From: Candidatus Omnitrophota bacterium
Lineage (GTDB): Bacteria; Omnitrophota; Gorgyraeia; Tantalellales; Tantalellaceae
Length of the DNA stretch: 64,000 bases
Reading direction: 5' to 3'
Assembly (NCBI GenBank): GCA_028715965.1
Contig: JAQUQS010000003.1
Location: 78,494 to 142,493, forward strand
Under the pieces are notes generated by a model that worked only from the letters and a program-made list of their open reading frames with translations, had not been told where the DNA came from and searched no databases. Every line of letters begins with the position of its first letter. The stretch's first letter is position 1. The translations under genes were made by a program, and so were the position numbers. Positions 19,133-37,776 of the stretch are shown here, one piece after another.

Positions 19133-19423
19133 TCATTGATCGTTCCTCATGGTTATCATTATCAAGTGGTACCCGAAAGCTGTTTTCACCGGGCCATGCA
19201 CCTTGTTGAGCTCCCCACTGAACACGACCTTATCGAACTCGGGCACCATATCCCCCTGGGAGAACTCACCCAGGTCCCCGCCCTGTTTCCCCGACGGGCA
19301 AAGAGAACACTCACAGGCAATATCGGAGAAATCCTCACCCGCCTCAATGCGTGCGATGATCTCCGCGCACTTTTCCTTGGAATCAACGAGAATATGTTTT
19401 GCTTTGGCTCTTTTCATGTCCAC
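19133..19423 (-). CDS. ppiC: Parvulin-type peptidyl-prolyl cis-trans isomerase (PpiC-like)
   Basis: 96 aa; KAKHILV...GGDLGEF...FGYHLI matches the PpiC/Par10 fold motifs. Confidence 0.8.
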   Translation of the reverse strand: MDMKRAKAKHILVDSKEKCAEIIARIEAGEDFSDIACECSLCPSGKQGGDLGEFSQGDMVPEFDKVVFSGELNKVHGPVKTAFGYHLIMITMRNDQ

Positions 19424-21758: not shown

Positions 21759-24700
21759 TTAAGCGGCCTTGAGCAGGTCTTGCATAGCGGAATGGAGTTC
21801 CAGTAGTTTTTCCACAGGCATACGCGCCATAGGAGGTATAGCCAGGGATATGGCCAGGTTGATCCTGGTTGACGAGTCATCATAGACCATGTTCTTCAGT
21901 GTCTTTTCGGTTATACCTATACTGCCGTCGGATAGAACAGCGTACAGGTCCCTCAAACGCGAAAGCATGCGGGTATCCTCTATTACCTTGTTCATTTCTT
22001 CTTCTTCAAGCGCGCTTACACCCCGGCCTCTTCTTTTCGCTATCACAAGAGCGGCCTTGGACAGGCCGATCATAAGCGCGGCTTCAAAATTCCTGAAAAC
22101 GACCTGCTTGTTATTAATTCCGGTCAGTCCGTCCATAGCTACCGGGAACTCTCCAGGCCCAAGCTCCATACCACTATCCCTCATCCACTCAAGCCAGGCC
22201 TTCGACAAAATAGGTATTTCTATGGCATTCTCCGCCTGGTCGGCGTTAAGCTTCCCGTTCATTATGGCGTCCGCGTCTATATCCTGGCCGAAAAGTACCG
22301 AAAGCTCACGTATCCTGCCCTTCAAGAGGAATCTCACTTCTTCCTCGGACGCGCCGTTCCTTATCTCCGTAAGCAGACTTTCGGGCATGGTCTTCATGTC
22401 CACGGGATAAGGTTGCCTGAAACTGAACCGGACATTCTCCAGGTCCCGGCATAAGAGCATCAAATGCGCCCACGTTGTTATGTTCGCCTCCATATCCCGC
22501 CGGTCCAGCCCTGATATAAGGGAAAGGTCCACTACAATATGCACCGGAGCCATCTTTCCCGGCATGGAAGGATCATCAAAAACAGCCTCGAGATGTCTCT
22601 TAAGCCCGGTAAACGCCATGATCGCCGCGACATGGGACCGTTGTACATTGTCCCGCGCTTCACTGACCCTCCGAGCAAGCTCACCGGCGGCCGCTTCTCC
22701 GGCCTCACCGATAACCCTGATCATACCAAGCGCGTGCTGGTAGACCGCGTCCTTAAGCCTGTCCGGGTCGTCCACGCTCATTTCGATCATGTTCACGTTC
22801 ATTTCCCCGCCGAAATATGCCGCCGCAAAATATTTTAACGCTTCGTTCTGGACAGCCTTGTTCTCCTCCCCAGCAAGATCTAAGACCTTTATCAGGTTAT
22901 CTATCCTGGCATCGACCCCGTGTCTCAGAAAGCGTTCGTTCTCGCCCGCTATCTCCCAAAAATCCCCCAAGTCAGTGATATTGCCGAGCATATCCGTGTT
23001 TATCATTGATCCATGGGTACTCTCCATAATGTTATTGTTCACCAGTCTGCGCATGTTGCGTCCGTAATTACGGCACATCTCCCTGAAATATTCCTCCAGG
23101 GAACCGAATCCTAATTCATCCAACGCGTCATTAAACTCTTTCTTCTTAGGCGCTCCATCCGTATCAAAGAAGGACGAAAGGCGTCTGTAATCCCCCACAG
23201 GCACACGCAGGGTAATTACATACGGCGCTTCCAGCGTCATATTCGCGAGCGTCCACCTGGTCAGGCTGCCACCGTCATTAAGCACCGATATCTCGCGCGG
23301 GATGGTCGTACCGTACTCATCTCCAAGCCCCACGGGGTTCCTTGTAGCCAGCTGGTGCCACCAATCCAGGAATATCCCGGGTTTACCCACGTATTCATCT
23401 ATCACGGTCGCCGGAAAGCTTGAGTTTATATTATGTTTTTCATATGACGGCGTTCCCGCGTTCTTGAACTCCAGCCCGAACACGTGCCGGCTTTCCTCCC
23501 CTCCGGACCTGAGGTCGTCCGTGGTCCTTATGATCCTTTCTCCACTACTCGTCCTGGAGGTCACTACCGTATACGGTATGGGAAGAAGCATGGACCTTCC
23601 CGCTATCCCCAGCGCGGGCATCTCGAAGGGCTTATCGTCCTTACCATATACCCTGCGTAACCCATATCTTTCATATACTTCCTGGTCGGTAAGCGGCCTG
23701 ACATACGCGATGGTCGGAGCGCCTTCGACTTTGGCGTAAAAAGGACCTGTCGTCAGGACAAGCGCCCCGTTATCCCCGTTGATGATCGAACTCAAATGTC
23801 CAGGGAATTCCACGCCGACCGGAATATCCCACTTGGCCCCTTCTTTTACGTAAACTTGCGCCATTATCGGCGTGAATTTCTTGCCTACCGTAAGGTACCT
23901 TGTTTTACCGGTATCTTTATCGACACTTATGCTGCTTGCCGACACTGCGGCTGATACTTCCTTTCCAGCTTCTTCCTTGAGGGCATAGAACGCGTCCGTC
24001 GCGGCAAGAGGAGTGAACTCCATCCTCCCGGATGGCGCCGCCGGCCCGACAGCGGCCTTTTCCGATCTTTTCGCCTCCATCATCTTCAAGAGAACGTAAT
24101 TAGCTACCGTTCCCGGGGTTATCTCTCGTACGGTCTCTATTTTTTCCGCGCTATGCTCATCGGAAAAATCCTTATGGGCTTTCTCCAGCACTTCCGGGTC
24201 CACTTGCTCAACAAGGGACAGGTACCTGTCCATGTTACGCTGGCTCCATACCCGCCATATGCGCGGGTCCAGGCTCTTTATCTTTGCGGCCTGCCGCGGG
24301 TCCAGTATGGCAGCGGAAATACCGCCGACAAGCTCTATCGACGCGCGCATATCGCCATCGCTATCCCGGTAGGTGGTCGCCCCTATCGTATCGTAATATC
24401 CAATGAGCCCCGCGCCGCCCAAAGCGGCTATCAGCACATCCTCGCGCCTTATATATCGCTTGGCCCACAGGATAAGATAATGCGTCTTTATTATGAAGTT
24501 CCCCAGTCCGCGACCGCGGTTGTCCTGGTAGTTCCTGACGCCGTAGCTTCCCCTTTCCGCCCGGGCTACCTCCCTTAATTCATTCCCATCCGGCCCTATC
24601 TCAACCATGGCAATGTCACTGTTCTCCTCTATCCTGAACTCATATTCGACCCGATCCGGCCCAGTCCCGCTGACCCATTTTGTGCTTCTTTTCTCGCCCA

Positions 24701-26774
24701 GAAGGTCCCACATATCGAATTCATACACCTCGGACAGATAGAACATATCAGCGATATGTTCGGGTTTCATATATTCTTCCATCCTGTCAGGACCTCGCCC
24801 CCACATATCCGACCCCTTACCCTCGAACTGTCCGGCAAGCTTGCGGTATTTGTAATAGAATGTGTTGAGCCGGGAAAACCCTTCTTCGTCCAATTTGATA
24901 TTCCTCTCCACAAGTCCCCGGATACGCGCTATCTCTATATTGTCCACCACCTCCCGAATGGTGGTCTCAAGTGTCTTTCCGCTCGAATCCAGCACAACGG
25001 CGTTCTTCGGCCGGCGTGACGGCATATGTTCTCGATGTTCGTCAAGCTCATCCCTACGCGCGATGCTCCCGGCTACTGCCTCGACCATTCTCCCGAAACG
25101 TTCTTCCTCGGAGACGCTCTCCGCTATACGCGCGTACTCACCAGGCGTAGTTCCTATAACATTGCAATAAGAGGCTTCAAGGCCTTCCTTTTTCACCATC
25201 TGGCGTGTCCTGCGTTCCGCGCGCTCCTCGGGACTGGCGGTCATGTATATTTTTATATCAGCATCCGGGGCGATCTCTATTCCCGTGGTCCTCCCCTCAA
25301 GCACCACAGAGACCCCACGCGCCCGAAGCGTGTCTATCATTTCCCTTATCTTCCTGACGGCGAACCATCGTATCTCGGGTATGGCCGAGACAAAAGGCAC
25401 GTTGCCGGAAATATCCTCGGAATAGAATATCTCCGTGATCTCTTGTTCTCCATAAAAAGAACGCGTAGTCCCTTCCGTTTCTTCCATGCGGAACTTCGCC
25501 ATGTCGATATTCTCCGCTATCTTGCGAAGTTCCTCCTTAGTGGACCGGTCCATATCTTTTTTTATATCCAACCCTTCCTTAAGGGCAAGCCATGTTATAA
25601 GCCGGTATATCTTTCCGGCCGAAAAGAACACCGCCCCCAGCATTTTTGCCGCTTCGGACGCGGATGAGGATTTCCCCGTCCCCGATGGGCCATCTATCGT
25701 CGCTACAAAACTATCGTTAAGTATGGGTTGTTTAGCGTAGATCGGGCCAGTCCTGACATCCGGATATTTCCTCAGATCCAGGTGGGCTCTCCTGATATAC
25801 TCCCCGGTGTCGAGCCTTACTTCTCCCTTTATCGTGCCCGGACCGAACATCCCGCTCCATATATTCTCGCCATTGTAGGTCAGGAACGTCGTAGTTAATC
25901 TCCATCGATTTTCCTTATCAATATCGCGCGAAAGCTCCGTCACGAGTTCCCGCAGGAGATTACGCCCGACACCACGCCCTCTTTCCTGCCTCATGACATA
26001 ATGAAAGTAGATCTTATACCCGGTACGACCGACCTTCCCGTACGAGACGAACCCCAGTATCGGCCCACCCAGCTCACGTATGATTATCATATCGTCACGT
26101 GACCGGTCTATCCCGTCGTCATAATCCACCACGACATCCGGCACATCATCCCTGTAAGCCTTTATAGCCCCGTCTATCATCTCCCTGCGTTTACCTTCAT
26201 CCTTTATCCTGGCGGTATATATGATCTCCGCCTTAGGCGCCTTGCGGGCCCTGGCTATCTCCATGGGCATTATCTTTAAATATTCATCTTGGACAGGTTC
26301 CGCGGCGGCAACGTCTTCCGCATCCGCCGGTTCTATATTGATGCGGGTCTCATCCTTCTGGATATCCTGTATACTGCGGCAAGTGGAAGATATCTTCAGT
26401 TTTTTACCCTTGTACGGCCCCCTGACCACGGTAACAGCCACTACAGTACGGCCATCTTCTTTCCATACCCCTCCCGGCAGCACTTCCATAAGACGCGCTT
26501 TACCGTCTATCCGGCTGTACCATTTATCAAGTTCGGCGTTGATCTCGTGGAAAGGCATCTCTCCATCCCTTAGGGCCATGGCCAGTATAAGAGCCGTCTC
26601 GATACGCAGCGCTTCGGCGTTCTCGCGTCCTACATGATCTGTAACAGGTTTGAATATGGATTGTACCTGGAGGGTCTCCGACGGATCCATGTTATCATAA
26701 CGCGGCAATGCGGCAAATACGGTATCGTTGGACAGGAACAGGCATATGACCAAAGATGAAATTATCCGTTTCAT
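21759..26774 (-). CDS. Giant multidomain protein (about 1670 aa): N-terminal signal/anchor, GNAT acetyltransferase, cytidylate-kinase-like P-loop domain, possible second GNAT motif, large uncharacterised C-terminal half
   Basis: GNAT motif A QERGRGVGRNLL (preceded by ILGFVSYGK); cytidylate-kinase-like VATIDGPSGTGKSSSA and VLDSSGKTLE; second RGRGLGNFIIKTHYLILWAKRY; uninterrupted ORF of 1710 codons. Start set at MKRIISSLVICLF. Confidence 0.6.
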   Translation of the reverse strand: MKRIISSLVICLFLSNDTVFAALPRYDNMDPSETLQVQSIFKPVTDHVGRENAEALRIETALILAMALRDGEMPFHEINAELDKWYSRIDGKARLMEVLPGGVWKEDGRTVVAVTVVRGPYKGKKLKISSTCRSIQDIQKDETRINIEPADAEDVAAAEPVQDEYLKIMPMEIARARKAPKAEIIYTARIKDEGKRREMIDGAIKAYRDDVPDVVVDYDDGIDRSRDDMIIIRELGGPILGFVSYGKVGRTGYKIYFHYVMRQERGRGVGRNLLRELVTELSRDIDKENRWRLTTTFLTYNGENIWSGMFGPGTIKGEVRLDTGEYIRRAHLDLRKYPDVRTGPIYAKQPILNDSFVATIDGPSGTGKSSSASEAAKMLGAVFFSAGKIYRLITWLALKEGLDIKKDMDRSTKEELRKIAENIDMAKFRMEETEGTTRSFYGEQEITEIFYSEDISGNVPFVSAIPEIRWFAVRKIREMIDTLRARGVSVVLEGRTTGIEIAPDADIKIYMTASPEERAERRTRQMVKKEGLEASYCNVIGTTPGEYARIAESVSEEERFGRMVEAVAGSIARRDELDEHREHMPSRRPKNAVVLDSSGKTLETTIREVVDNIEIARIRGLVERNIKLDEEGFSRLNTFYYKYRKLAGQFEGKGSDMWGRGPDRMEEYMKPEHIADMFYLSEVYEFDMWDLLGEKRSTKWVSGTGPDRVEYEFRIEENSDIAMVEIGPDGNELREVARAERGSYGVRNYQDNRGRGLGNFIIKTHYLILWAKRYIRREDVLIAALGGAGLIGYYDTIGATTYRDSDGDMRASIELVGGISAAILDPRQAAKIKSLDPRIWRVWSQRNMDRYLSLVEQVDPEVLEKAHKDFSDEHSAEKIETVREITPGTVANYVLLKMMEAKRSEKAAVGPAAPSGRMEFTPLAATDAFYALKEEAGKEVSAAVSASSISVDKDTGKTRYLTVGKKFTPIMAQVYVKEGAKWDIPVGVEFPGHLSSIINGDNGALVLTTGPFYAKVEGAPTIAYVRPLTDQEVYERYGLRRVYGKDDKPFEMPALGIAGRSMLLPIPYTVVTSRTSSGERIIRTTDDLRSGGEESRHVFGLEFKNAGTPSYEKHNINSSFPATVIDEYVGKPGIFLDWWHQLATRNPVGLGDEYGTTIPREISVLNDGGSLTRWTLANMTLEAPYVITLRVPVGDYRRLSSFFDTDGAPKKKEFNDALDELGFGSLEEYFREMCRNYGRNMRRLVNNNIMESTHGSMINTDMLGNITDLGDFWEIAGENERFLRHGVDARIDNLIKVLDLAGEENKAVQNEALKYFAAAYFGGEMNVNMIEMSVDDPDRLKDAVYQHALGMIRVIGEAGEAAAGELARRVSEARDNVQRSHVAAIMAFTGLKRHLEAVFDDPSMPGKMAPVHIVVDLSLISGLDRRDMEANITTWAHLMLLCRDLENVRFSFRQPYPVDMKTMPESLLTEIRNGASEEEVRFLLKGRIRELSVLFGQDIDADAIMNGKLNADQAENAIEIPILSKAWLEWMRDSGMELGPGEFPVAMDGLTGINNKQVVFRNFEAALMIGLSKAALVIAKRRGRGVSALEEEEMNKVIEDTRMLSRLRDLYAVLSDGSIGITEKTLKNMVYDDSSTRINLAISLAIPPMARMPVEKLLELHSAMQDLLKAA

Positions 26775-26935
26775 CTTTGGGGTAAATGCCGCTCTTTTGT
26801 CCCATGGTCCGCGTGTCATAACGGTCTTCTTCTGGTCCCTTTCCCGTCCCGGCCGGGGCATATCCACCCAATTTGGGGAAGGATGGAACATGCCCTTTTC
26901 CCGGGATACAACAACATAAAAAAAGCCGGATCGCC

Positions 26936-27032
26936 TATCTAGGCAATTCGGCTTTCTGGAATAAACATATCACGTTTATCTAGACCCCAAATTTTGCGCC
27001 CCCATGTCACCACGAGTTTGCCTTTATCTAGA
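26936..27032. promoter_or_regulatory. Cluster of three TATCTAG(A) palindromic sites in a divergent promoter region
   Basis: GCCTATCTAGGC (26934-26945) nested in a longer inverted repeat AAAGCCG...CGGCTTT; TTTATCTAGA at 26975-26984 and at 27023-27032. Confidence 0.35.
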
Positions 27033-27215: not shown

Positions 27216-28337
27216 ATGCTTTTTCCTGGGTTCCCTAAAGATTATGAGACCTCGTTCCTGGATTTCTACCGGAACCAGACCTTCCTGCAATACAGGTTCT
27301 CCCTGGCCGCGGCTATATTCCTGTATTGCATAGTCGGCATCCTGGACTACTGGGTGGTCCCTGAGATAGTCATGAAGACCTTGACCATGCGTTTTCTCAT
27401 CGTAGCGCCCTTTTGTTCTATTGTGCTCATAACCAGCTTTTATGTTAAGAAGGATAAATTCCTGCAACTGGCCGGCGCGGCGATAGTAACACTGGCCGGC
27501 GTTCTTGTAGTCTGGATGATAGCGCTGGCCCGGGGGACAGAGAACCACCCATATTACGCGGGGCTTCTTACCGTCATTTTCTACGGTTATGGTGTCGTGA
27601 GGCTGCGTTTCATATATTCCTGTATCCCCGGATGGATCATAATGTTGTCATATATCATAGCTTTTTGGACCGGGGCCATAATCCTGTCCCCGCAGGTGTT
27701 CTATACTAACGCCTCGTTCCTGTTGATAGGCAACGTTATCGGGATGCTTATCAGTTATTTTCTCGAGCGCGGTATGAGGACCGAGTACCGCCAACTGATG
27801 GACCTGGAAAAAATGAACAAGGAACTGGAAGAGGTCTCCCTTACCGACAGCTTAACGAACGTGGCCAACAGAAGATGTTTCGACAAGAGGTTCTCCGAAG
27901 AATGGCACCGGGCGTTCAGGGAAAAGAAAGAACTCTCCCTCATCCTTCTGGACGTGGACCATTTTAAGGAATACAACGACAACGAGGGTCATAAGGCCGG
28001 TGACAAATGTCTATCGACGATAGCCTTTTACATAAAAAGGAACATTAACCGGCCCGGGGATTTTGTCGCGCGGTACGGCGGGGAGGAATTCATCATAGTA
28101 TTACCCGGCACACCGGAGTGGGGCGCGCACTTTATAGCCGAGAAGATAAGGAAAGATATCGAGTCTCTCGGTCTCTCGTATATGTCAGACGGCAAGATAC
28201 GCAAGGTCACCATAAGCCTGGGTGTTTTTTCCCGGGTGCCAAGCGAAGAGCATACCTCTCGCCTTTTCTTCGTTTCCGTGGACAAAGCTCTTTATTCCGC
28301 GAAGAACAGCGGCAGGAACAATACTGTGGTAGGCTAG
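27216..28337 (+). CDS. Membrane-anchored diguanylate cyclase (GGDEF domain)
   Basis: Five or six N-terminal TM helices; [14 protein letters not shown] (GGEEF active site); [13 protein letters not shown]. Confidence 0.85.
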
Positions 28338-30134: not shown

Positions 30135-30494
30135 TCACATCCCCGTTCCCGGGATCTTTTGTTTGTTGGCTTCTTTCCTTTGTCTGCGGGCAAGTTCGCC
30201 GACAACGCTATCAGGGGACAGATCTTCCGCCTTGCTATAATGCTTCACGGCCTTATGGATACATTTAGCTCTTTTAGTCCCCTCTTTCCCCCGGCAACTC
30301 ACCGCTTTCTTGAACCAAGCGTCTCCCAGAAAGAACTGGGCCTTGGGCTTATCTGGCGTCATCCTCAACGCTTTCTGGTAAGCTTTTATCGCCTTGTCGA
30401 ATTTGCCCTTTATGAGATAGCTTTGCCCTAACAGCATATATTGCGTGGGGTATTTCAGGTCATCGTTATTTTTAAGAATGTCATCCCCCATCAT
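30135..30494 (-). CDS. TPR-repeat protein
   Basis: TPR-like helices (YMLLGQSYLIKGKFDKAIKAYQKALRM). Confidence 0.45.
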   Translation of the reverse strand: MMGDDILKNNDDLKYPTQYMLLGQSYLIKGKFDKAIKAYQKALRMTPDKPKAQFFLGDAWFKKAVSCRGKEGTKRAKCIHKAVKHYSKAEDLSPDSVVGELARRQRKEANKQKIPGTGM

Positions 30495-30501
30495 GATCCC
30501 C

Positions 30502-30858
30502 TCAGTCCATGGCTTTTATGTCATTATTTGCCCATACCGCCCATTTGCCAGACCCATATTTTTCTATAAGCCCTTTCAAGACAGTTTTAGCTTCAGTTTT
30601 TTGGCCGGCCTTCTCATAGCTCTTCCCGAGGTAATACATGGCCACTTCCGTCATAGCGCTTTCCGGGCATTCCTCTACCGCTTTTTTGAAACTTTCAATA
30701 GCCTCATCATATTTTTCCCTTTTATATTCCCTCTTGCCTTCATCATAAAGCTTCATCGAGTCCTTTATCGTCAACGCCAGACACGTTCCCTGCGCGAAAA
30801 AGACCGCAACAACAAGAACGGCCGTCACTATACCCGTAATATATCGTTTTTTTCTCAT
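30502..30858 (-). CDS. Secreted TPR-repeat protein
   Basis: Signal peptide plus TPR-like repeats (YDEAIESFKKAVEECPESAMTEVAMYYLGKSYEKAG). Confidence 0.45.
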   Translation of the reverse strand: MRKKRYITGIVTAVLVVAVFFAQGTCLALTIKDSMKLYDEGKREYKREKYDEAIESFKKAVEECPESAMTEVAMYYLGKSYEKAGQKTEAKTVLKGLIEKYGSGKWAVWANNDIKAMD

Positions 30859-30910
30859 TTTCCCTCCTTTTGGTGTTCTCCCCGTTAACCTGGCACCCGA
30901 AACACATCTG

Positions 30911-30952
30911 AAAATAAAAAAGCCGAAGTCATCGTCTCAGCGAACTTCGGCT
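30911..30952 (-). terminator. Rho-independent terminator closing the Fur-headed operon
   Basis: AGCCGAAGT...ACTTCGGCT 9-bp stem preceded on the plus strand by AAAATAAAAA. Confidence 0.55.
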
Positions 30953-31162
30953 CCTGTAAGAACCAAAATCCACTTCAGCTTCTATATTTTGTATATTGGC
31001 TTAAGTGTCTTTGGTTATTTCCACCACAAATTTGATATATTGCCTATATATCCTTCTCTTCCTTTTATGACCTGATCTAGACCCGTATCGTTAAGTATAC
31101 CCATATTTTTATATTAACAGATATAGCCACCATGTCAAGCACGGACAACGCCCAACCTCTTG

Positions 31163-31357
31163 TCAGGCTATCTTAAGGGCTCCTACGGGGCATACCCTCT
31201 CGCATCCTCGAAGCCTGTCACATTGGAGTTCATCCCTAACCCCGCATTTCCCGCTGGTACGGTCTATATAAAGTATCTTCGTCGGGCACAGGTCCACACA
31301 CGCCCCACAACCGATACATTTATCTTCGTCGATCATTACTATTTTACGCACGGCCAT
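31163..31357 (-). CDS. 4Fe-4S ferredoxin (two-cluster)
   Basis: CIGCGACVDLCP and CDRLRGCERVCP motifs; 64 aa. Confidence 0.75.
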   Translation of the reverse strand: MAVRKIVMIDEDKCIGCGACVDLCPTKILYIDRTSGKCGVRDELQCDRLRGCERVCPVGALKIA

Positions 31358-31414
31358 ACCTCCGTGACCAGAACACGCGGTCCACTCCGGACATTTCCCG
31401 CGCGAACAGCATTA

Positions 31415-32032
31415 TCATGTTTTTCGCGCGGCTATCATCCAAATACACGCGTTATCATACCTCTTGACCCGATAGCCTCTTTTTTCCAGCCACTCACTTG
31501 CGTCTTCCGGCCCCAATAGAGAACTCTCGTGTTTTCGTCCTTCGGCCGCGTGCACATCTTCAATGATCCTGAGGCCCTTATCATTAAGATCCGAGATCAT
31601 GAACAGACCTTCGGGAGACAACACTCTATCTATCTCGTTAAAAACACCGTCCAGGGCCGATATATGATGTAGCGCTTCGGCCATAAAAATGTTAACAAAG
31701 GAATGGTCCGGGAATTCCAGGGACCCGGCATCCATTTTATGAAGTTCTACTTTGCCATTAAGCCCCTCATGCGCCAGATTGAGGACGGTGGTCCTGAGCA
31801 TAACCTCGTTATTATCTATCGAGGTTATATCATATCCTTTCCTCGCCAGGCAAAGCGCCATCATTCCTCTGCCTGAGCCTATATCCAGTATCTTGCCGCT
31901 CAACGGCCCGGCTTTCTCCAGTACTAATTCCTTGTTCCAAAGAAAATCCAGGCCTTTCCCCCGGTAAAGCGCATATCTCGCTTCAAAAACCTTTCGCGCT
32001 GCTTCTATCTCCGCGTCGGTCAACCGCGCCAT
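31415..32032 (-). CDS. Class I SAM-dependent methyltransferase
   Basis: Motif I ILDIGSGRGMMAL, acidic residue after beta-2 (ITSIDNN), motif post-I. Confidence 0.75.
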   Translation of the reverse strand: MARLTDAEIEAARKVFEARYALYRGKGLDFLWNKELVLEKAGPLSGKILDIGSGRGMMALCLARKGYDITSIDNNEVMLRTTVLNLAHEGLNGKVELHKMDAGSLEFPDHSFVNIFMAEALHHISALDGVFNEIDRVLSPEGLFMISDLNDKGLRIIEDVHAAEGRKHESSLLGPEDASEWLEKRGYRVKRYDNACIWMIAARKT

Positions 32033-32068
32033 GTACCTCATAACTATCATCCTTCCCGGACCATGCTT

Positions 32069-32932
32069 CTATCCCGCCCCTATCGACGTAACGGCCTCCC
32101 AAGCCTCCCTGATAGCCCGGGTAGTCACGTTCTCGGCATATTCGATTATGGTCTTCCCCTCTACCATGGCCTTCACAACGTCCTCATCGAACCCGATCCT
32201 GGCTATCACATCTATTTTCTCACCACAGCAATAAGCTCGTATATCGTCGGCCATGCGTTCGTTCAGGTCATATTTATTTATTATGAACATGACGGGCACG
32301 TTGAAATGTCTTGCCATGGCGACCACACGCTTCGCGTCATGTAACCCCGACAGAGTAGGCTCCGTGACCACAATAGCCGCGTTCGCTCCGGAAAGGGACG
32401 CGATCACCGGGCACCCGATGCCGGGAGAACCATCCACTATGACCCATTCATGCCCATCTTTTTCAGCGATCTCTTTTGCTTTGCCCTTGACCAGGCTTAC
32501 AAGCTTACCCGAGTTCTCTTCGGCTATGCCCAACCTGGCATGGACCATAGGACCAAACCTCGTATCCGAGACGAACCACTCGCCCGTTACGTTCTCTTTC
32601 ATCTCAATGGCTTTTTCCGGGCAGATAAAAGAACAGAAAGCGCATCCTTCGCACGAAATGGGGTCGACCTTAAAATCGGCAGTTACTGCCCTAAACCTGC
32701 ATATGCCCCGGCACAAACCGCATTTCACGCATTTCTCCGGGTTTATCTCCGCGGTTTTCCCGCTCTTGAACATGCCATTCTGCCTTGTTGCCGGATCAAG
32801 CAATAGATGAAGGTCGGCCGCGTCAACATCACAATCCACCATGACCTTGCTCCGCGCGATAGCGGCAAAAGACGCGGTTATGACGGTCTTCCCAGTACCC
32901 CCTTTTCCACTTATGACAACTACCTGCTTCAT
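32069..32932 (-). CDS. MinD/ParA-superfamily P-loop ATPase with inserted 4Fe-4S ferredoxin domain (COG1149-type)
   Basis: Deviant Walker A GKGGTGKT; inserted CVKCGLCRGIC and CEGCAFCSFICP cluster motifs. Confidence 0.8.
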   Translation of the reverse strand: MKQVVVISGKGGTGKTVITASFAAIARSKVMVDCDVDAADLHLLLDPATRQNGMFKSGKTAEINPEKCVKCGLCRGICRFRAVTADFKVDPISCEGCAFCSFICPEKAIEMKENVTGEWFVSDTRFGPMVHARLGIAEENSGKLVSLVKGKAKEIAEKDGHEWVIVDGSPGIGCPVIASLSGANAAIVVTEPTLSGLHDAKRVVAMARHFNVPVMFIINKYDLNERMADDIRAYCCGEKIDVIARIGFDEDVVKAMVEGKTIIEYAENVTTRAIREAWEAVTSIGAG

Positions 32933-33786
32933 CTCGACATCTCTTCCTCAAGTTTTTTCACCAAACCGGCGAATTCGTCCCTATACTCAGGGAACGCTTC
33001 CACAATGGATATCCCCCTGGAATATTCAGCCGCTATCTCTTTACTGAACGGGATCTTCATGAGCACAGGTATCCCCTCTTGCGCGCAATATTCCTCCGTT
33101 CTTTCGTCACCCAAACCATGGCGGTTTATGACCACACCGAACGGTATGTCCATTTTCTTTATGACTTCCACGGTCAGCCTGAGGTCGTGTAGACCGAAAG
33201 GCGTGGGTTCTGTGACCAATACACAGGCATCAGACCCGTGTATGGCCGTTATAACAGGGCAAGTGGTCCCCGGCGGAGCATCGACAATGACCGTCCTCCC
33301 CTTATTAAGCTTGTGCTTCACGGCCCGTATCACGGGAGGCGACATGGCTTCACCTATATTCATCCTGCCATGCACGAATTCGAGCTCTCCACGATACCCG
33401 ACCTCGACAACGCCAACCTTTCTTTTCTCTTCTTTGATGGCGTTCTCGGGGCAAAAATACCTGCATGACCCGCAACCGTGGCAGAGTTCCCGGAACACAA
33501 GTGCCCTGCCCGCGGTTCTACCTGAACCAGGAAGAACTGCTATGGCATTATACGCGCATACTTCAGCGCATCTGCCGCATAACGTACATATATCCTCATC
33601 GATCCTGGGCACATAAATGAACACATCTTCCGTTCTTTTTATATCAGGTTTGATAAAAATATGGGCGTTGGGTTCCTCCGCGTCGCAATCCAAAAGCTGC
33701 ACCGGTCCCGGGAGGGATAGGGCCAAGGCCGTACTTACCGTGGTCTTCCCTGTTCCGCCCTTACCGCTGGCGACGGATATTATCAT
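32929..33786 (-). CDS. MinD/ParA-superfamily P-loop ATPase with inserted 4Fe-4S ferredoxin domain, paralogue
   Basis: SGKGGTGKTT; CTLCGRCAEVC and CHGCGSCRYFCP. Confidence 0.8.
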   Translation of the reverse strand: MIISVASGKGGTGKTTVSTALALSLPGPVQLLDCDAEEPNAHIFIKPDIKRTEDVFIYVPRIDEDICTLCGRCAEVCAYNAIAVLPGSGRTAGRALVFRELCHGCGSCRYFCPENAIKEEKRKVGVVEVGYRGELEFVHGRMNIGEAMSPPVIRAVKHKLNKGRTVIVDAPPGTTCPVITAIHGSDACVLVTEPTPFGLHDLRLTVEVIKKMDIPFGVVINRHGLGDERTEEYCAQEGIPVLMKIPFSKEIAAEYSRGISIVEAFPEYRDEFAGLVKKLEEEMSR

Positions 33787-34163
33787 TGTCCTTCCTCTTT
33801 TTGCGTACCGAAATGCGGCTCCACACTGGGACCGGCGGATGTCTTCGTTCTTCCGGCCTTATAAGCGCCTATAGCGTCCTCTACGGTCCCGGAAACCCCC
33901 GTTATCACCTCTATGCCCGAAGCGGACAATGTTTGAAAAGCGTTGGGACCCACATTACCGGTAAGCACAGCCTTTACTTTCTGTTGGGCCATATACTGTC
34001 CGGCCCTTATACCCACGCCTCCAGTTCCGTCCCTGTCGCTGTTCTCGACAAATTCTTTTTCACCCGACTCGGTATCAAATATCAAAAAATACCCGCATCT
34101 TCCGAACCTGGGGTCTACACGCGAATCCAGGCTGTCTTTTTCCGCCGTGATACATATCCTCAT
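33783..34163 (-). CDS. NifX/NafY/NifB-C-terminal-like domain protein (dinitrogenase FeMo-cofactor-binding fold, COG1433)
   Basis: FGRCGYFLIFD and a downstream AVLTGNVGPNAF Gly-rich motif characteristic of PF02579. Confidence 0.7.
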   Translation of the reverse strand: MRICITAEKDSLDSRVDPRFGRCGYFLIFDTESGEKEFVENSDRDGTGGVGIRAGQYMAQQKVKAVLTGNVGPNAFQTLSASGIEVITGVSGTVEDAIGAYKAGRTKTSAGPSVEPHFGTQKEEGQ

Positions 34164-34178
34164 TTTCCTCTCCTCGCT

Positions 34179-34565
34179 TCAATGCCCGTCACCATGATCA
34201 CATACCGTTTTATCCAATCCGTATCCCTTTCCCGCTCCGGGCTTACAGGAACTGTCCCCTCCATGGAGCTTACCCTTTGCCATTTCTAGCATAACTTCAT
34301 CGATCGCCCCGTTCACTCCTACAATTACCTGTATACCTCTCTCGGAAAAAAGTTGTATGGCCCTCTGCCCCATACCTCCGGCAATTATGCATTCAACGCC
34401 TTTTCCGCCCAGGAATTCCGGGAGAAACCCCGGATGATGCCCCGGGTTCGATATCACTTCTTTAACGCCAACCTTGCCTTCTTGTATATCAACTATCGTG
34501 AACGAAGGACATCGGCCGAAATGCTCGGATACGACCTCTCCGTCCGTGGAAATAGCGATCTTCAT
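34179..34565 (-). CDS. NifX/NafY-like domain protein (COG1433), second copy
   Basis: MKIAISTDGEVVSEHFGRCPSFTIVD and CIIAGGMGQRA motifs. Confidence 0.7.
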   Translation of the reverse strand: MKIAISTDGEVVSEHFGRCPSFTIVDIQEGKVGVKEVISNPGHHPGFLPEFLGGKGVECIIAGGMGQRAIQLFSERGIQVIVGVNGAIDEVMLEMAKGKLHGGDSSCKPGAGKGYGLDKTVCDHGDGH

Positions 34566-34588
34566 GTCTTCCCCCATTCTTCTGTCTA

Positions 34589-34924
34589 TTACTGTTCGTC
34601 GCTCTTTTCCAGTTCGGCTATACGCGCGCGGATATCCCCGAGCTGCGCTTCAAGCGCCTCCGCTTCCGCCTTGAGCATGCCCTTTTCCTCCCGGGCCGTC
34701 ACATGTCCGGCTGGATACCCATAATATCCGGCCCTCTGCCATCCCGTAAGTCCTGTCGCGTAGTATCGATTCCTCCGCCCGCGACCACCGCGGCCTCTTA
34801 TTCCCATTCCTCCGCCCGCGACCACCGGACGATCTGAAGGCATTACGCAATAGCCCCTGCCCCCGCCTGTCATCGGCCCCACACCAGCGGGACCCGTTCC
34901 GTCAAAACCTGGCATAGTACTCAC
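34589..34924 (-). CDS. DUF5320-like protein (Gly/Pro/Met-rich N-terminus, coiled-coil C-terminus)
   Basis: MPGFDGTGPAGVGPMTGGGRGYC N-terminal motif and C-terminal coiled coil (LKAEAEALEAQLGDIRARIAELEK). Confidence 0.55.
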   Translation of the reverse strand: MSTMPGFDGTGPAGVGPMTGGGRGYCVMPSDRPVVAGGGMGIRGRGGRGRRNRYYATGLTGWQRAGYYGYPAGHVTAREEKGMLKAEAEALEAQLGDIRARIAELEKSDEQ

Positions 34925-35438
34925 CTCCTCTTTCCATCTTTATCCTTACACTTATCGCAAAGACCGTAAAACTGTATAAGATGGCCTTTTATCTCAAACC
35001 TGTATTTTTTCGAAAGACCTTTTTCCGCCCGTTCCAGGAACTCTATCTCATCATCGACGAATTCCGAATAATCTATCACCCTCCTGCACCCTGTACACAC
35101 AAGATGATGATGATGTTTTGTTCCCGCCCCATTAACGGATTCATAACGCGCCCGTCCGTCCCCAAAATCGAACTTTGACAATAACCCCATGTCTGTAAGG
35201 ACCTCCAGCGTCCTGTAAACAGTGGTAAGCCCTATCTGAGGACACATCTCGTGGACTTTCATATATATGTCTTCCGCGCTCAAATGCCCGGGCGTACACT
35301 GCAATACATCTATTATCGCTTTACGCGGAGCGGTGAACCTGTACCCGCACCCCCTGAACCTATGGCCCCAATTCTCCCCGCATCTTCCCGCTCTTCCCGC
35401 TCTTCCCTGCATATATTGCCTTCCTTGTTTATTGAAAA
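34921..35438 (-). CDS. fur: Fur-family metalloregulator
   Basis: DNA-binding helix ...RKAIIDVL...GLTTVYRTLEVL, metal sites HHHHLVCTGC and CDKC. Alternative start at 35412 (MQGRAG...). Confidence 0.8.
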
Positions 35439-35442
35439 TGGT
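35424..35442 (-). promoter_or_regulatory. Fur box overlapping the fur start codon
   Basis: Minus-strand reading GATAATGAAAACCATTTTC matches 16 of 19 positions of the consensus GATAATGATAATCATTATC. Confidence 0.55.
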
Positions 35443-35619
35443 TTTCATTATCAATTATACCTGACAAAACTGTTTTAGTCAATAAAAAACCGACCGATCT
35501 ATATCAATACCGGTAAACAACAGATCTTGGAAAAAGTACTGAAGGAATATGCTATACAGCCGCGCGAGCGCGTTCCCGACAGTACTCTAGCGGACCGACT
35601 CGGTAACGCCCCTCTTTTA

Positions 35620-36756
35620 TCAGAAGACTACATATGACATCGCCTTTTTAAGGATCCTTGTCTGCCTGCCCAGGTCCTCGATCGAGCGTATCTTAAGCCC
35701 ACACTTACGCGCCTCCCGTATCTTCTCGACCGTTACCTCCCCAAATCCCGGCACGCGAAGAAGCCTGGACACCTCGTCCCGGTTAACATCCACGGGGAAG
35801 AACTCGGGATGCGCTTTAGCCCAGGCCTCCTTGGGATCGCACTCGAGAGAGAGCTTCCCCCCGGATCCGAACGGTATTTCGTCGGCGGTAAAACCGTATT
35901 TGCGCATAAGCCAGTCAACCTGGTAAAGCCTGTGCTCCCGCGTCAACAGATCGGCGTTGCTTCCGCCCGACACCTCTCCCGGAAGGTCCGACGCGCCCGC
36001 TCCGCGCTGGTACGCGCTAAAATACACTCGACAAAGACCCAGGTTCCTGTAAAGCCCCCATGACGCCTTGACTATTTCCTCGTCCGTATCGGAAGCCGCG
36101 CCGACAACGAATTGTGTCGTCTGTTTTACCCGCGAGAACTCTCCTCCTCTGGCTGTAAGACGGCTAATAAGCTTCAAGGGACGCACTATATCATTCTTAA
36201 AATCCTTTGTCGTACTGAGTTCCCGGAACCTGGCCGCCGTAGCGGTCTCAACATTTATCGACACCGCCGTAGCGAGGGACAGGCTCCGGCGCACAGCCGC
36301 GTCTGACGCCCCGGGTATGATCTTCAGGTGTATATATCCCCTGAATCCACTACGTCGCAGGGCCCCGGCGGTCCTGTTGATGCCATCCATCACAGCGTCG
36401 GGCTTTCCTCCTACACCGCTTGACAGGAAAAGTCCGCTCACCTTGCGCGCCCTGTAATATGAAAGGAACGTCCGGGCCAGTTCTTCCGGAACGAGGCCGC
36501 ACCTGGGGACATCTCTACCCGCCCTTAGAGGACAGTACTTGCAATTATTAACGCATTCGTTGGAAAGGAGCGTTTTGAACAAAAATGTCCGTCGCCCGTC
36601 GGGGAACGTGACCGGATATATCCACTTATCGGTCTCTGAACGTTTACGATGTTCGTCCTGTCGCGTAGCGCACGCGCAAGCCAGGTCATATCGCGAATCC
36701 CTTGAAAGGACCCTGAGCTTCTCATTCGTATCCATCGTTTTCTTTATCATCACCAT
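35620..36756 (-). CDS. Radical SAM protein with C-terminal helix-hairpin-helix (putative DNA modification/repair radical SAM family)
   Basis: CVNNCKYC (CxxxCxxC) cluster motif; C-terminal LLRVPGFGEVTVEKIREAR HhH-like segment. Confidence 0.6.
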   Translation of the reverse strand: MVMIKKTMDTNEKLRVLSRDSRYDLACACATRQDEHRKRSETDKWIYPVTFPDGRRTFLFKTLLSNECVNNCKYCPLRAGRDVPRCGLVPEELARTFLSYYRARKVSGLFLSSGVGGKPDAVMDGINRTAGALRRSGFRGYIHLKIIPGASDAAVRRSLSLATAVSINVETATAARFRELSTTKDFKNDIVRPLKLISRLTARGGEFSRVKQTTQFVVGAASDTDEEIVKASWGLYRNLGLCRVYFSAYQRGAGASDLPGEVSGGSNADLLTREHRLYQVDWLMRKYGFTADEIPFGSGGKLSLECDPKEAWAKAHPEFFPVDVNRDEVSRLLRVPGFGEVTVEKIREARKCGLKIRSIEDLGRQTRILKKAMSYVVF

Positions 36757-36963
36757 ACAGGCCCTCTTACGCCCCCCGCAGGTCTCTCACCATTTCGTCT
36801 TCAGTCACCCCTGATCGCCTATTACTCGAACATTTTCACGGCCCAGGTATACATAGCTAATATAACTAACCACCACACATAGTGGGCTATAACCCGAAGG
36901 GTTATTGAAAGGCCGGATATACACCGGAGATACGACAACCTTACCATGTCCTGTTTTTTCGTC

Positions 36964-37058
36964 GTATGATGAGCGATGTGGCGTGAGCGAGTTCCGCAGA
37001 CCAAGGGCTGACCGAAAGTCGAGGACTGTTTGAGCTGTAGCCACATCCCGGATCATAC
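36964..37058. repeat. Conserved-core hairpin element, copy A
   Basis: GTATGAT..GATGTGGC stem closing core AGTTCCGCAG...CGAGGACTGTTTGAG..GTAG then GCCACATC..ATCATAC. The same core recurs at 54085-54160 with a different closing stem. Confidence 0.6.
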
Positions 37059-37060
37059 TT

Positions 37061-37079
37061 CTTATCTATAATAGATAAG
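37061..37079. promoter_or_regulatory. Perfect 19-bp palindrome CTTATCTATAATAGATAAG
   Basis: 9-bp arms around a central A, immediately 3' of hairpin A; candidate protein-binding site. Confidence 0.3.
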
Positions 37080-37118
37080 ATCTTTTACAGGTTTAGCTGG
37101 GGCTGAACCTGCCCTCTT

Positions 37119-37170
37119 AAAACAAAAAACCTTCGGCGGATCGCTAACCCGCCGAAGGTTTTACTTTTTT
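37119..37170. terminator. Bidirectional rho-independent terminator
   Basis: AAAACAAAAAA, then CCTTCGGCGG-atcgctaac-CCGCCGAAGG, then TTTTACTTTTTT: a perfect 10-bp stem with an A-tract 5' and a T-tract 3'. Confidence 0.65.
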
Positions 37171-37272
37171 ACCGTCCAGGTTCCCCCTTCGAACTCAGGA
37201 CCTTCCAGCAATGTCTATCAAAGTTTACCCCTGAACAGCTCCTTTGTCAAATACCGTTGCCATGCCAGTGAG

Positions 37273-37776
37273 TTACTTTACGGAAACTATCTTTACCTCG
37301 AACAAGAGGTCTTTACCCGCCAACGGATGGTTAAAATCTATGACCACGACATCATCCCTGACCTCCGATATCCTTACGGGCACCACCCCGCCATCCTGCT
37401 GCTCGGCCTGGAGCATTATACCGGCCGCGGGTTCCATGCCCTCGGGAAGCCTCGAACGCGGTATTTCCCGGAAAGCCTCGCCCCTGATCTCCCCATACGC
37501 TTCCGCCGAAGGGACCGTAATCTTTCTCTCTTCGCCCGTCCTCATACCTTCCATCCTTTTGGTAAGCCCCGGGATAAGCCCGCTTTCCCCCTGAACATAC
37601 TCAAGCGGCTCCTTGCCCCTGGAAGTATCGACCACCTCTCCATCAACAGTCAAGGTATAATCGAACGTTACCGTTCTCCCTTTTTCCACCGTCATATCTC
37701 CCCCTTCCGCGTTGGCGCATCCATAGATGCTGCTTATAGTGATAACTACCGATAGCAGGCGTATCAAGCGCCCCAT
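37273..37776 (-). CDS. FKBP-type peptidyl-prolyl cis-trans isomerase, secreted or lipoprotein
   Basis: VTFDYTLTVDGEVVDTS...LIPGLTKRMEGMRTGEERKITVP FKBP core; N-terminal signal peptide with a Cys (SSIYGCANA). Confidence 0.8.
   Translation of the reverse strand: MGRLIRLLSVVITISSIYGCANAEGGDMTVEKGRTVTFDYTLTVDGEVVDTSRGKEPLEYVQGESGLIPGLTKRMEGMRTGEERKITVPSAEAYGEIRGEAFREIPRSRLPEGMEPAAGIMLQAEQQDGGVVPVRISEVRDDVVVIDFNHPLAGKDLLFEVKIVSVK

Follow-up and report, generated by a model that had tools for sequence, protein, structure and literature searches.

A 64,000-nucleotide (nt) window of a Candidatus Omnitrophota genome (GCA_028715965.1, contig JAQUQS010000003.1, positions 78,494 to 142,493) carries on its minus strand, at 31163-35412, an apparent operon headed by a gene for a Fur-family regulator. 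By Pfam, eight consecutive genes follow one another in the order fur-DUF5320-NifX1-NifX2-ATPase1-ATPase2-methyltransferase-ferredoxin (Table 1), and the same eight are present in an NCBI record (GCA_028710465.1, contig JAQTUB010000004.1), where the starts of NifX1, the methyltransferase, and the ferredoxin are slightly shorter. Both sources agree with the gene set and domains listed in an earlier reading of this DNA that used its letters alone (the sequence-only reading).

Gene layout and its boundaries

Gaps of 5 nt (fur to DUF5320), 23 nt (DUF5320 to NifX1), and 15 nt (NifX1 to NifX2) separate the first four genes; ATGA overlaps join NifX2 to ATPase1 (33783-33786) and ATPase1 to ATPase2 (32929-32932); and gaps of 27 nt and 63 nt precede the methyltransferase and the ferredoxin, respectively. 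The sequence-only reading had counted three ATGA overlaps, of which these two stand; the third ATGA, at the methyltransferase stop, begins no gene. Its terminator is present as a hairpin and T-run, with the correction that this structure lies ~210 nt beyond the ferredoxin stop and that a promoter-like site (31138..31111) intervenes.

Table 1. Features of the fur-headed gene set, in window coordinates (aa, amino acids; SAM, S-adenosylmethionine)
Feature	Position	Strand	Evidence or remark
Sigma-70-type promoter, TTGACT-17 nt-TATAAT	35454..35482	-	11/12; top-scoring site in 30400-37300
Fur-family operator, GATAATGAAAACCATTTTC(AA)	35432..35452	-	7-1-7 inverted-repeat core TGAAAAC-C-ATTTTCA
fur, Fur-family, 163 aa	34921-35412	-	PF01475, E 2.6e-31
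9-bp tandem repeat GCGGGAAGA, 3.8 copies, encoding GRAGRAGRCG	35373..35407	-	Tandem Repeats Finder
DUF5320 protein, 108 aa	34589-34915	-	PF17253, E 2.1e-21
NifX1, NifX-like (Nitro_FeMo-Co / Di-Nase)	34179-34565/34577	-	PF02579; likely start 34565, 128 aa
NifX2, NifX-like, orange-protein (ORP/Orp8)-like Di-Nase, 126 aa	33783-34163	-	PF02579
ATPase1, MinD-type P-loop ATPase with inserted 2x[4Fe-4S] domain, COG1149, Orp3/Orp4-like	32929-33786	-	CbiA/ParA + Fer4
ATPase2, MinD-type P-loop ATPase with inserted 2x[4Fe-4S] domain	32069-32932	-	CbiA/ParA + Fer4
Class I SAM-dependent methyltransferase	31415-32041/32050	-	Methyltransf_11, E 5.6e-19; likely start 32041, 208 aa
2x[4Fe-4S] ferredoxin, 62-64 aa	31163-31351/31357	-	Fer4_7/Fer4; 62 aa in NCBI record
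Intrinsic-terminator-like hairpin + T-run	about 30911-30952	-	~210 nt past ferredoxin stop

Promoter, operator, and their conservation

The sequence GATAATGAAAACCATTTTC (35434-35452, minus strand) matches the Escherichia coli Fur-box consensus at 16 of 19 positions, with 3 mismatches, and is the sole such match in the 64 kb, where 0.02 would be expected by chance. This box begins 1 nt 3′ of the −10 hexamer, covers the predicted transcription start, and overlaps the ATG at 35448, the first possible ATG of fur, just as the sequence-only reading had it. Against a weight matrix built from 65 other loci with the window excluded, the operator scores 35.7 of a maximal 36.4 bits; the runner-up independent site in the window reaches 12.5 bits, and shuffled sequence reaches 14.1. 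A site at 19143-19163 (12.3 bits) was rejected as a further operator, lying as it does inside an open reading frame (ORF) for a PpiC-type rotamase and within the shuffle noise.

With transcription expected to begin within the box, neither the TTG at 35454 nor the ATG at 35448 can serve as the start codon. The ATG at 35412, which the sequence-only reading had favored, is preceded by a ribosome-binding site (RBS; AAGGAAGG), is the point from which homologues align, and yields the 163 aa of the NCBI call; it is strongly supported as the start of fur.

The locus was compared with the 80 closest loci of species-representative genomes, whose Fur proteins share 54 to 68% identity with that of the window (Fur relatives number in the thousands). 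These loci derive from Omnitrophota, Planctomycetia, WOR-3, Atribacterota, Elusimicrobiota, Thermodesulfovibrionales, TA06, Spirochaetota, Lentisphaerae, Calditrichota, Syntrophaceae, Clostridia, Poribacteria, Firestonebacteria, and others. In 66 of the 78 loci that have enough upstream sequence, the same register holds a 19-mer that matches at 13 or more positions, the shared arrangement being TTGACA, 17 nt, TATAAT or TATATT, T, GATAATGGAAACCATTTTC, AATAAGGAG, ATG; in most of the 78, the promoter hexamers stand directly 5′ of the box, and operator positions T6, G7, A10, A11, C13, A14, T15, T16, C19, and A20 are nearly invariant. Operator scans covered the window and the ~8-kb flanks of the related loci (864 kb of flanks) and, in 68 of the 80 loci, found upstream of fur a box scoring 16 bits or more. 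With the box thus kept in sequence and position among orthologous loci, the autoregulation by Fur that the sequence-only reading proposed is strongly supported.

Nearly all other strong sites in the flanks fall in the spacer between fur and DUF5320. A second box lies no more than 200 nt from the fur stop in 53 of the 80 loci, with the consensus ATTAATGAAAATGATTTTCATTAAC, a perfect 7-1-7 repeat (TGAAAAT-n-ATTTTCA); given its place between fur and DUF5320, the structural genes should themselves be direct targets. The window has lost this spacer down to its 5 nt and possesses the single operator TGAAAAC-C-ATTTTCA. No other credible operator was found with the weight matrix in the window or in the 864 kb of flanks: matches in two loci (L048 and L071) lie inside oxidoreductase coding sequence, and those in three more (L016, L024, and L040) are not extra targets, as they stand at the start of this operon, at least one gene farther upstream. 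In two of the latter, both from Thermodesulfovibrionales (L016, 74-499; L024, 124-492), a promoter and box precede a gene for a ~125-aa Cys-rich protein with a CGGC motif, followed by fur, the second box, and DUF5320, which puts fur in second place in the unit.

In a metagenome scan for AATGAAAATNATTTTCATT, ~17 of 120 matches occur in fur/ORP-like contexts and ~27 of 120 lie 1.1 to 1.3 kb from a distant Fur that belongs to a different lineage; the remaining matches are unassociated or in AT-rich DNA, and the scan is uninformative on the regulon of the subfamily. The palindrome at this constant distance of 1.1 to 1.3 kb is AATGAAAATnATTTTCATT, with a gene lying between it and the distant fur, and the distant Fur (~27 metagenome loci; 30 to 34% identity) comes apparently from one abundant lineage with a GC content of ~0.48 (e.g., L086, L104, L115, L130, and L141).

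The encoded proteins, related loci, and neighboring features

(i) The Fur protein matches PF01475 with 108.7 bits (cutoff, 23.1) over residues 23-149. Among NCBIfam models, it scores highest with Bacillus-type Fur (126.9 bits; cutoff, 220), followed by E. coli Fur (92.1; 146) and PerR (86.7 and 73.1; cutoff for the former, 180), with Zur (36.4; 167) and Irr far lower. Its matches in the Protein Data Bank (PDB) are Fur proteins, and Bacillus subtilis PerR is among the matches (E 1e-18). The regulatory His/Glu residues and the two structural CxxC motifs (H43, E91, H100-H103, C106/C109, H144, and C152/C155) are invariant in 22 homologues; the regulatory residues align with the H33, E81, and H86-H90 region of Vibrio cholerae Fur, and, like Bacillus-type Fur, the protein has no counterpart of Asp89. 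In the AlphaFold model, helices and strands follow the order expected for the family; the model gives no hint of the effector.

The Gly/Arg/Cys-rich N-terminal extension described in the sequence-only reading is in part ordinary: its FRGCGYRxT segment aligns with the N-terminal region of other Fur proteins, and what is truly extra amounts to only ~14 residues, comprising the GRAGRAGRCG stretch of the 9-bp tandem repeat, with residues 1-12 predicted to be disordered (pLDDT < 50). The repeat might allow this disordered N terminus to vary in length. A short W-x3-F motif nearby is conserved, with W15 and F19 invariant in the 22 homologues. The N terminus reads MPxxDGTGPPWWHG in two homologues from databases and in 5 of the 64 Fur proteins from genomes, and the MPxxDGTGP motif, which the Fur of the window lacks, also opens the DUF5320 and zinc-ribbon proteins of the same operons. 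A hidden Markov model of the DUF5320 N terminus, searched against ~2,100 ORFs, hit beyond the DUF5320 and zinc-ribbon families just Fur N termini, and those weakly (best E 0.002, in L007). The motif may be a shared docking peptide.

(ii) The DUF5320 protein has an MPGFDGTGP N terminus, a cationic segment rich in Gly, Arg, and aromatic residues, and a C-terminal coiled coil. Residues 1-72 include 22 Gly, 9 Arg, and 8 aromatic residues, for a net charge of +7; the non-coil part of DUF5320 contains 29% Gly, 11% Arg+Lys, and 15% aromatic residues, with a median net charge of +7.

(iii) The two NifX-like proteins have different relatives. NifX1, with conserved H19, C23, H47, C111, C126, and H128, resembles TM1290 (PDB 1O13/1T3V) and is matched by the NCBIfam model of the MrpORP Di-Nase domain; its His/Cys set resembles the CxHFGHCE...CDH motifs of MrpORP, which are the proposed [3Fe-4S] cluster ligands of that protein (PMC6345978). 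NifX2 matches the Desulfovibrio gigas orange protein over its full length (2WFB, E 2e-19, residues 2-113) and also TM1816 (1RDU, E 1e-19).

(iv) The two ATPases are paralogues with 31% identity to each other. For ATPase1, conservation among 37 homologues is 95% or higher at the Walker A sequence GKGGTGKT, at all eight Cys of the ferredoxin domain, and at the Switch-II Cys (DAPPGTTC); both proteins combine a deviant Walker A with a Cys 7 residues past the Walker B Asp. This Cys occupies the position of the NifH cluster ligand Cys132, which hints at a nucleotide-coupled site where the two subunits of a dimer would meet. In the PDB, no solved structure spans the whole ATPase; separate MinD and polyferredoxin pieces match.

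(v) The methyltransferase falls under every NCBIfam cutoff, with subthreshold matches to CpaM, UbiE, and the DVU_1556 family. Its AlphaFold model (pLDDT 92) retrieves with Foldseek, among PDB structures, only generic class I small-molecule methyltransferases (TM 0.6 to 0.7). The idea that it acts on the RG-rich protein was dropped, there being no PRMT-like feature to support it.

Most related loci have the order fur-DUF5320-NifX1-NifX2-(methyltransferase)-ATPase1-ATPase2 on a single strand. Gene content was counted in 54 of the 80 loci, those that extend 4 kb or more past fur on its downstream side: the core of NifX and ATPase genes is present on the same strand in 44, DUF5320 was found by tblastn in 41, and a methyltransferase occurs in 28, preceding ATPase1 in 17 and following it in 8 of the loci with both genes. 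The closest homologues of the methyltransferase sit among genes for Fur, DUF5320, NifX, Mrp, ARMT1, MBL, and radical-SAM proteins. From this recurrence and these contexts, the methyltransferase is a regular accessory and not, as the sequence-only reading had it, an unusual extension of the operon.

Other accessory genes encode a small protein composed of an MPGGDGTGP N terminus, a Gly/Arg-rich segment, and a zinc ribbon (20 loci), an MBL-fold protein (14 loci), standalone Mrp/NBP35 (13 loci), ARMT1/DUF89 (12 loci), radical SAM proteins (11 loci), NifU_N/IscU (6 loci), small 2x[4Fe-4S] ferredoxins (6 loci), and an EncFtn-like ferritin (3 loci); of these, Mrp/NBP35, NifU_N, the ferredoxins, radical SAM, and the EncFtn-like protein are related to Fe or Fe-S. 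None of these accessory genes of related operons was found elsewhere in the 64-kb window. The 83-aa EncFtn-like (encapsulated-ferritin-like) gene lies between NifX2 and the methyltransferase in three Omnitrophota loci (L008, L015, and L030). In another locus (L208, 2426-3709), a CDF (cation-efflux) transporter is fused to a Nitro_FeMo-Co domain and adjoins a close homologue of the window's methyltransferase as well as two radical SAM genes. Fusions also occur within the core: NifX2 is joined by a Gly/Arg linker to a DUF5320-type coiled coil in four loci (L066, L070, L073, and L075) and to a Gly/Arg-rich zinc-ribbon module in L072, and NifX1 is fused to NifX2 in L016.

Outside the unit, and 207 nt upstream of fur, lies a minus-strand gene (35620-36756) for a DNA-repair-type radical SAM protein, "rSAM_link_UDG," with a C-terminal helix-hairpin-helix (TIGR03916, E 1e-81, under the cutoff of 343.5 bits); it is not kept beside fur in related loci. 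At the other end, ~200 nt of unannotated sequence (30911-31138, minus strand) separates the ferredoxin stop from TPR genes and is bounded by the promoter-like site, which has an extended −10 (TTGACA-16-TG-TAATAT), and by the terminator hairpin. A small RNA or an ORF of 29 codons may lie in this stretch; an Rfam search of the 3′ intergenic region (30900-31165) was without match, and its folding signal is weak (z −1.8). Farther away, a c-di-GMP-I riboswitch (RF01051, 50.6 bits, E 6e-7; 26939-27032, minus strand) stands directly 5′ of a 1,710-aa ORF (21759-26891, minus strand) and neighbors a gene for a MASE8-GGDEF diguanylate cyclase (27216-28337, plus strand), and a very large ORF of 2,931 aa occupies 54593-63388 (minus strand).

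Relation to known systems and proposed function

Fievet 2011 is reportedly the original paper on the ORP (orange protein) system. As characterized in Desulfovibrio vulgaris Hildenborough, this system consists of Orp3/4/5/7/8/9, encoded in orp operons (PMC6345978, PMC8359166). A Mo-Cu-S cluster on ORP is a further mark of the system. Orp3 and Orp4 are paralogues with two [4Fe-4S] ferredoxin motifs each, and the Orp proteins co-purify and obtain Fe-S clusters from MrpORP in vitro (PMC6345978). Expression of orp occurs only at low redox potential, by way of OrpR, a [4Fe-4S] sensor (PMC8359166), and the system, whose function is still described as unclear, has been linked tentatively to cell division (PMC6345978, PMC8359166).

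The window contains a paralogous ATPase pair with two [4Fe-4S] motifs per protein, like Orp3 and Orp4, together with an Orp8 homologue (NifX2) and a second, Orp5-like single-domain Di-Nase protein (NifX1). Both systems are restricted to anaerobes, and a small Gly/Arg-rich protein precedes ORP in Desulfovibrio sp. X2, where the ORP-orthologue locus runs from sigma-54 activators to a Gly/Arg-tailed protein of 168 aa, a protein of 112 aa rich in Gly, Arg, and Gln, ORP, a pair of CbiA+Fer4 ATPases, and another Nitro_FeMo-Co protein. The differences concern mainly control: whereas Desulfovibrio has two divergent sigma-54 operons under OrpR, the window has one sigma-70 operon with a Fur-family repressor, no Sigma54_activat gene within 10 kb on either side, and an additional methyltransferase and ferredoxin. 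The core gene neighborhood is the same as that of the Desulfovibrio ORP locus, and the regulator is different. Judged by its genes, the cluster is no unknown operon but a Fur-controlled variant of the ORP-type system already known. The sequence-only reading had described these COG1433/COG1149 genes as functionally uncharacterized, but they match genes of the Desulfovibrio ORP complex, which has been purified and whose proteins receive Fe-S clusters (PMC6345978, PMC8359166); its guess that they serve Fe-S or metallocofactor handling is supported. Full-text literature, of a coverage so limited that this amounts to absence of evidence, contained no link between a Fur-family regulator and ORP-like/COG1433/COG1149 genes.

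IssA, a thioferrate iron-sulfur storage protein of Pyrococcus furiosus that forms nanoparticles, combines a Di-Nase domain (IPR003731) with a cationic, Gly/aromatic-rich disordered segment (PMC5524996). In its composition, the non-coil part of DUF5320 shares the chemical character of the tail with which IssA binds thioferrate (PMC5524996), and the five NifX2 fusions (L066, L070, L072, L073, and L075) are bacterial instances of an IssA-like domain with a cationic tail. In contrast to IssA, NifX1 and NifX2 of the window lack such a tail, the tail-like segment being a separate DUF5320 protein with a coiled coil, and IssA is without a reported Fur-family regulator.

The individual proteins depart from their better-known relatives in several respects. 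The regulator shares with classical Fur (the E. coli/B. subtilis 7-1-7 model) the fold, the metal-site residues, the structural Zn site, an AT-rich palindromic operator overlapping the promoter, and autoregulation, but differs in the operator of the subfamily (TGAAAAT-n-ATTTTCA, or GATAATGGAAACCATTTTC at the fur promoter), in the N-terminal W-x3-F motif, and in its target, which appears to be one adjacent operon and not iron-uptake genes. The NifX-like proteins share PF02579 with NifX, NafY, and the C-terminal domain of NifB, but their best matches are non-nif (ORP, TM1816, and TM1290), and no nif genes lie within 10 kb on either side of the operon. The ATPases resemble the NifH/MinD/Mrp-NBP35 class in their deviant Walker A and, as in NifH, their Switch-II Cys, but carry the 2x[4Fe-4S] insert after the P-loop; against the MinD model TIGR01969 they score 60.6 and 63.8 bits, which fails its cutoff of 201.75.

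Taken together, the genes probably constitute a single sigma-70 unit in which an autoregulated, metal-sensing repressor of the Fur family is combined with an ORP-like machine for Fe-S or metal-sulfide clusters. On the basis of the observed gene content, promoter and operator, their conservation, and the ORP homology, we infer which metal is the effector, which way the regulation runs, that the proteins form a complex, and what chemistry they perform, as follows. A Fur dimer with its co-repressor metal, most likely Fe(II), would bind the 7-1-7 operator and block RNA polymerase, since the operator lies 1 nt past the −10 and over the transcription start. A falling metal signal would then derepress fur and the structural genes jointly, with translation presumably coupled through the 5-nt and 4-nt-overlap junctions. 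NifX2, of the orange-protein type, and NifX1, of the MrpORP Di-Nase type with Cys/His ligands, would be the cluster carriers, holding Fe-S or heterometal-sulfide species. ATPase1 and ATPase2, both of the MinD/NifH class and each carrying a pair of [4Fe-4S] clusters and a conserved Switch-II Cys, are a probable heterodimer; consuming ATP and drawing low-potential electrons from the ferredoxin, it would load the cluster held on the NifX-like proteins, reduce it, or transfer it. The presence of the same gene and operator arrangement across anaerobic phyla points to a role in iron or Fe-S handling.

Several points weigh against this account. Derepressing an Fe-S-rich machine at low iron is counterintuitive, and the Desulfovibrio orp genes follow redox potential through OrpR, not iron (PMC8359166). 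The regulator falls under every NCBIfam equivalog cutoff (Fur, PerR, Zur, and Irr) and therefore belongs to a distinct subfamily. Fe(II) is the effector assumed by default; peroxide, redox state, or another metal is possible, and either the holo or the apo form might bind DNA. The 7-1-7 variant also lies beside distant Fur genes and in unrelated DNA, so it is no private operator, and a wider Fur regulon is possible beyond the scanned window and flanks. An Mrp/NBP35 ATPase, which in Desulfovibrio is fused to a Di-Nase domain (MrpORP, also named Orp9), was not found in the operon or the 64-kb window, where NifX1 matches just the Di-Nase part, and the co-transcription of the methyltransferase and ferredoxin across their larger gaps is read from the absence of a terminator.

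Were the regulator PerR-like, or a Fur-family protein otherwise responsive to redox or peroxide, the operon would follow oxidants and be a functional analogue of OrpR control, a reading that we regard as unlikely but not negligible. It has in its favor that orp expression in D. vulgaris tracks redox potential through a [4Fe-4S] sensor (PMC8359166), that the PerR models and the structure of B. subtilis PerR give significant matches, and that an AhpC-type peroxiredoxin is encoded elsewhere in the window. The Fur models nevertheless score higher than those of PerR, and no surveyed operon includes a peroxide-defense gene. PerR carries Asp where the Fur site has Glu, and the window's regulator aligns Glu91 at this position; of the half-sites TGATAAT (Fur) and TTATAAT (PerR), the subfamily's TGAAAAT is closer to the former.

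Quite unlikely, in our estimate, is that this Fur is a general iron regulator to which the ORP-like genes are adjacent by chance or are one target among many. Such a regulator would explain the resemblance of the box to ordinary Fur boxes (16 of 19 positions), the 7-1-7 variant in unrelated contexts and beside distant Fur genes, and the fact that no second Fur gene was seen in the 64-kb window. It accounts poorly for an adjacency of fur and ORP-like genes that persists across many phyla, for the two operators bracketing fur in 53 of 80 loci, and for the want of any other credible site in the window or the flanks; moreover, additional Fur paralogues occur nearby in two related loci (L014 and L043), and a DtxR-feoAB set adjoins in a third (L072). 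The regulon of the subfamily seems to be a single operon.

We consider it improbable that the operon serves cell division, with MinD-like ATPases active in positioning the septum and Fur control secondary. The loss of orp expression does lead to morphological defects in D. vulgaris, where MrpORP is polar (PMC8359166, PMC6345978), and the ATPases match archaeal MinD models and MinD structures, but at ~60 bits they remain far under the MinD cutoff, neither this operon nor its relatives include minC, minE, or any division gene (Fe-S genes are what recurs), and the role is called unclear by its own proposers (PMC8359166). Finally, that the sequence past the −10 is a 5′-untranslated RNA element (a small AAUGG-AAA-CCAUU hairpin) instead of an operator is scarcely credible: the region would be transcribed, a 5-bp stem is possible, and conservation extends to the RBS region AATAAGGAG, but the G8/C12 pair is seen in all four combinations (G-C, A-C, G-T, and A-T) without covariation, so that what is conserved is a palindrome in the DNA rather than a stem in the RNA, the second copies are better DNA palindromes found in either orientation, and an Rfam search was without match.

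The Fur-controlled, ORP-like cluster machine admits a more speculative elaboration, to which we assign a low probability: the operon may be a split bacterial version of an IssA-type (thioferrate-like) system of iron-sulfur storage or mobilization. NifX2 would be the scaffold, DUF5320 would supply in trans the "tail" that wraps the polyanion, and the ATPases and ferredoxin would load or unload it. Fur would then not simply sense free Fe(II) but would register how far the machine is loaded, or vie for the same partner, acting through the N-terminal peptide (MPxxDGTGP...WWHGxF) that in some lineages is common to Fur, DUF5320, and the Gly/Arg-rich zinc-ribbon protein.

The widespread COG1433/COG1149 gene pairs have so far been modeled only in Desulfovibrio, in terms of redox sensing and perhaps cell division. 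In many other anaerobic phyla, a dedicated Fur-family repressor and a deeply conserved operator connect these genes with metal status, probably that of iron, and with the handling of Fe-S clusters; the pairing of operator and regulator is now precise and testable, and the gene fusions relate the system to Fe-S storage as exemplified by IssA. If the split, IssA-type arrangement holds true, anaerobes of many phyla would share a Fur-gated Fe-S reservoir.

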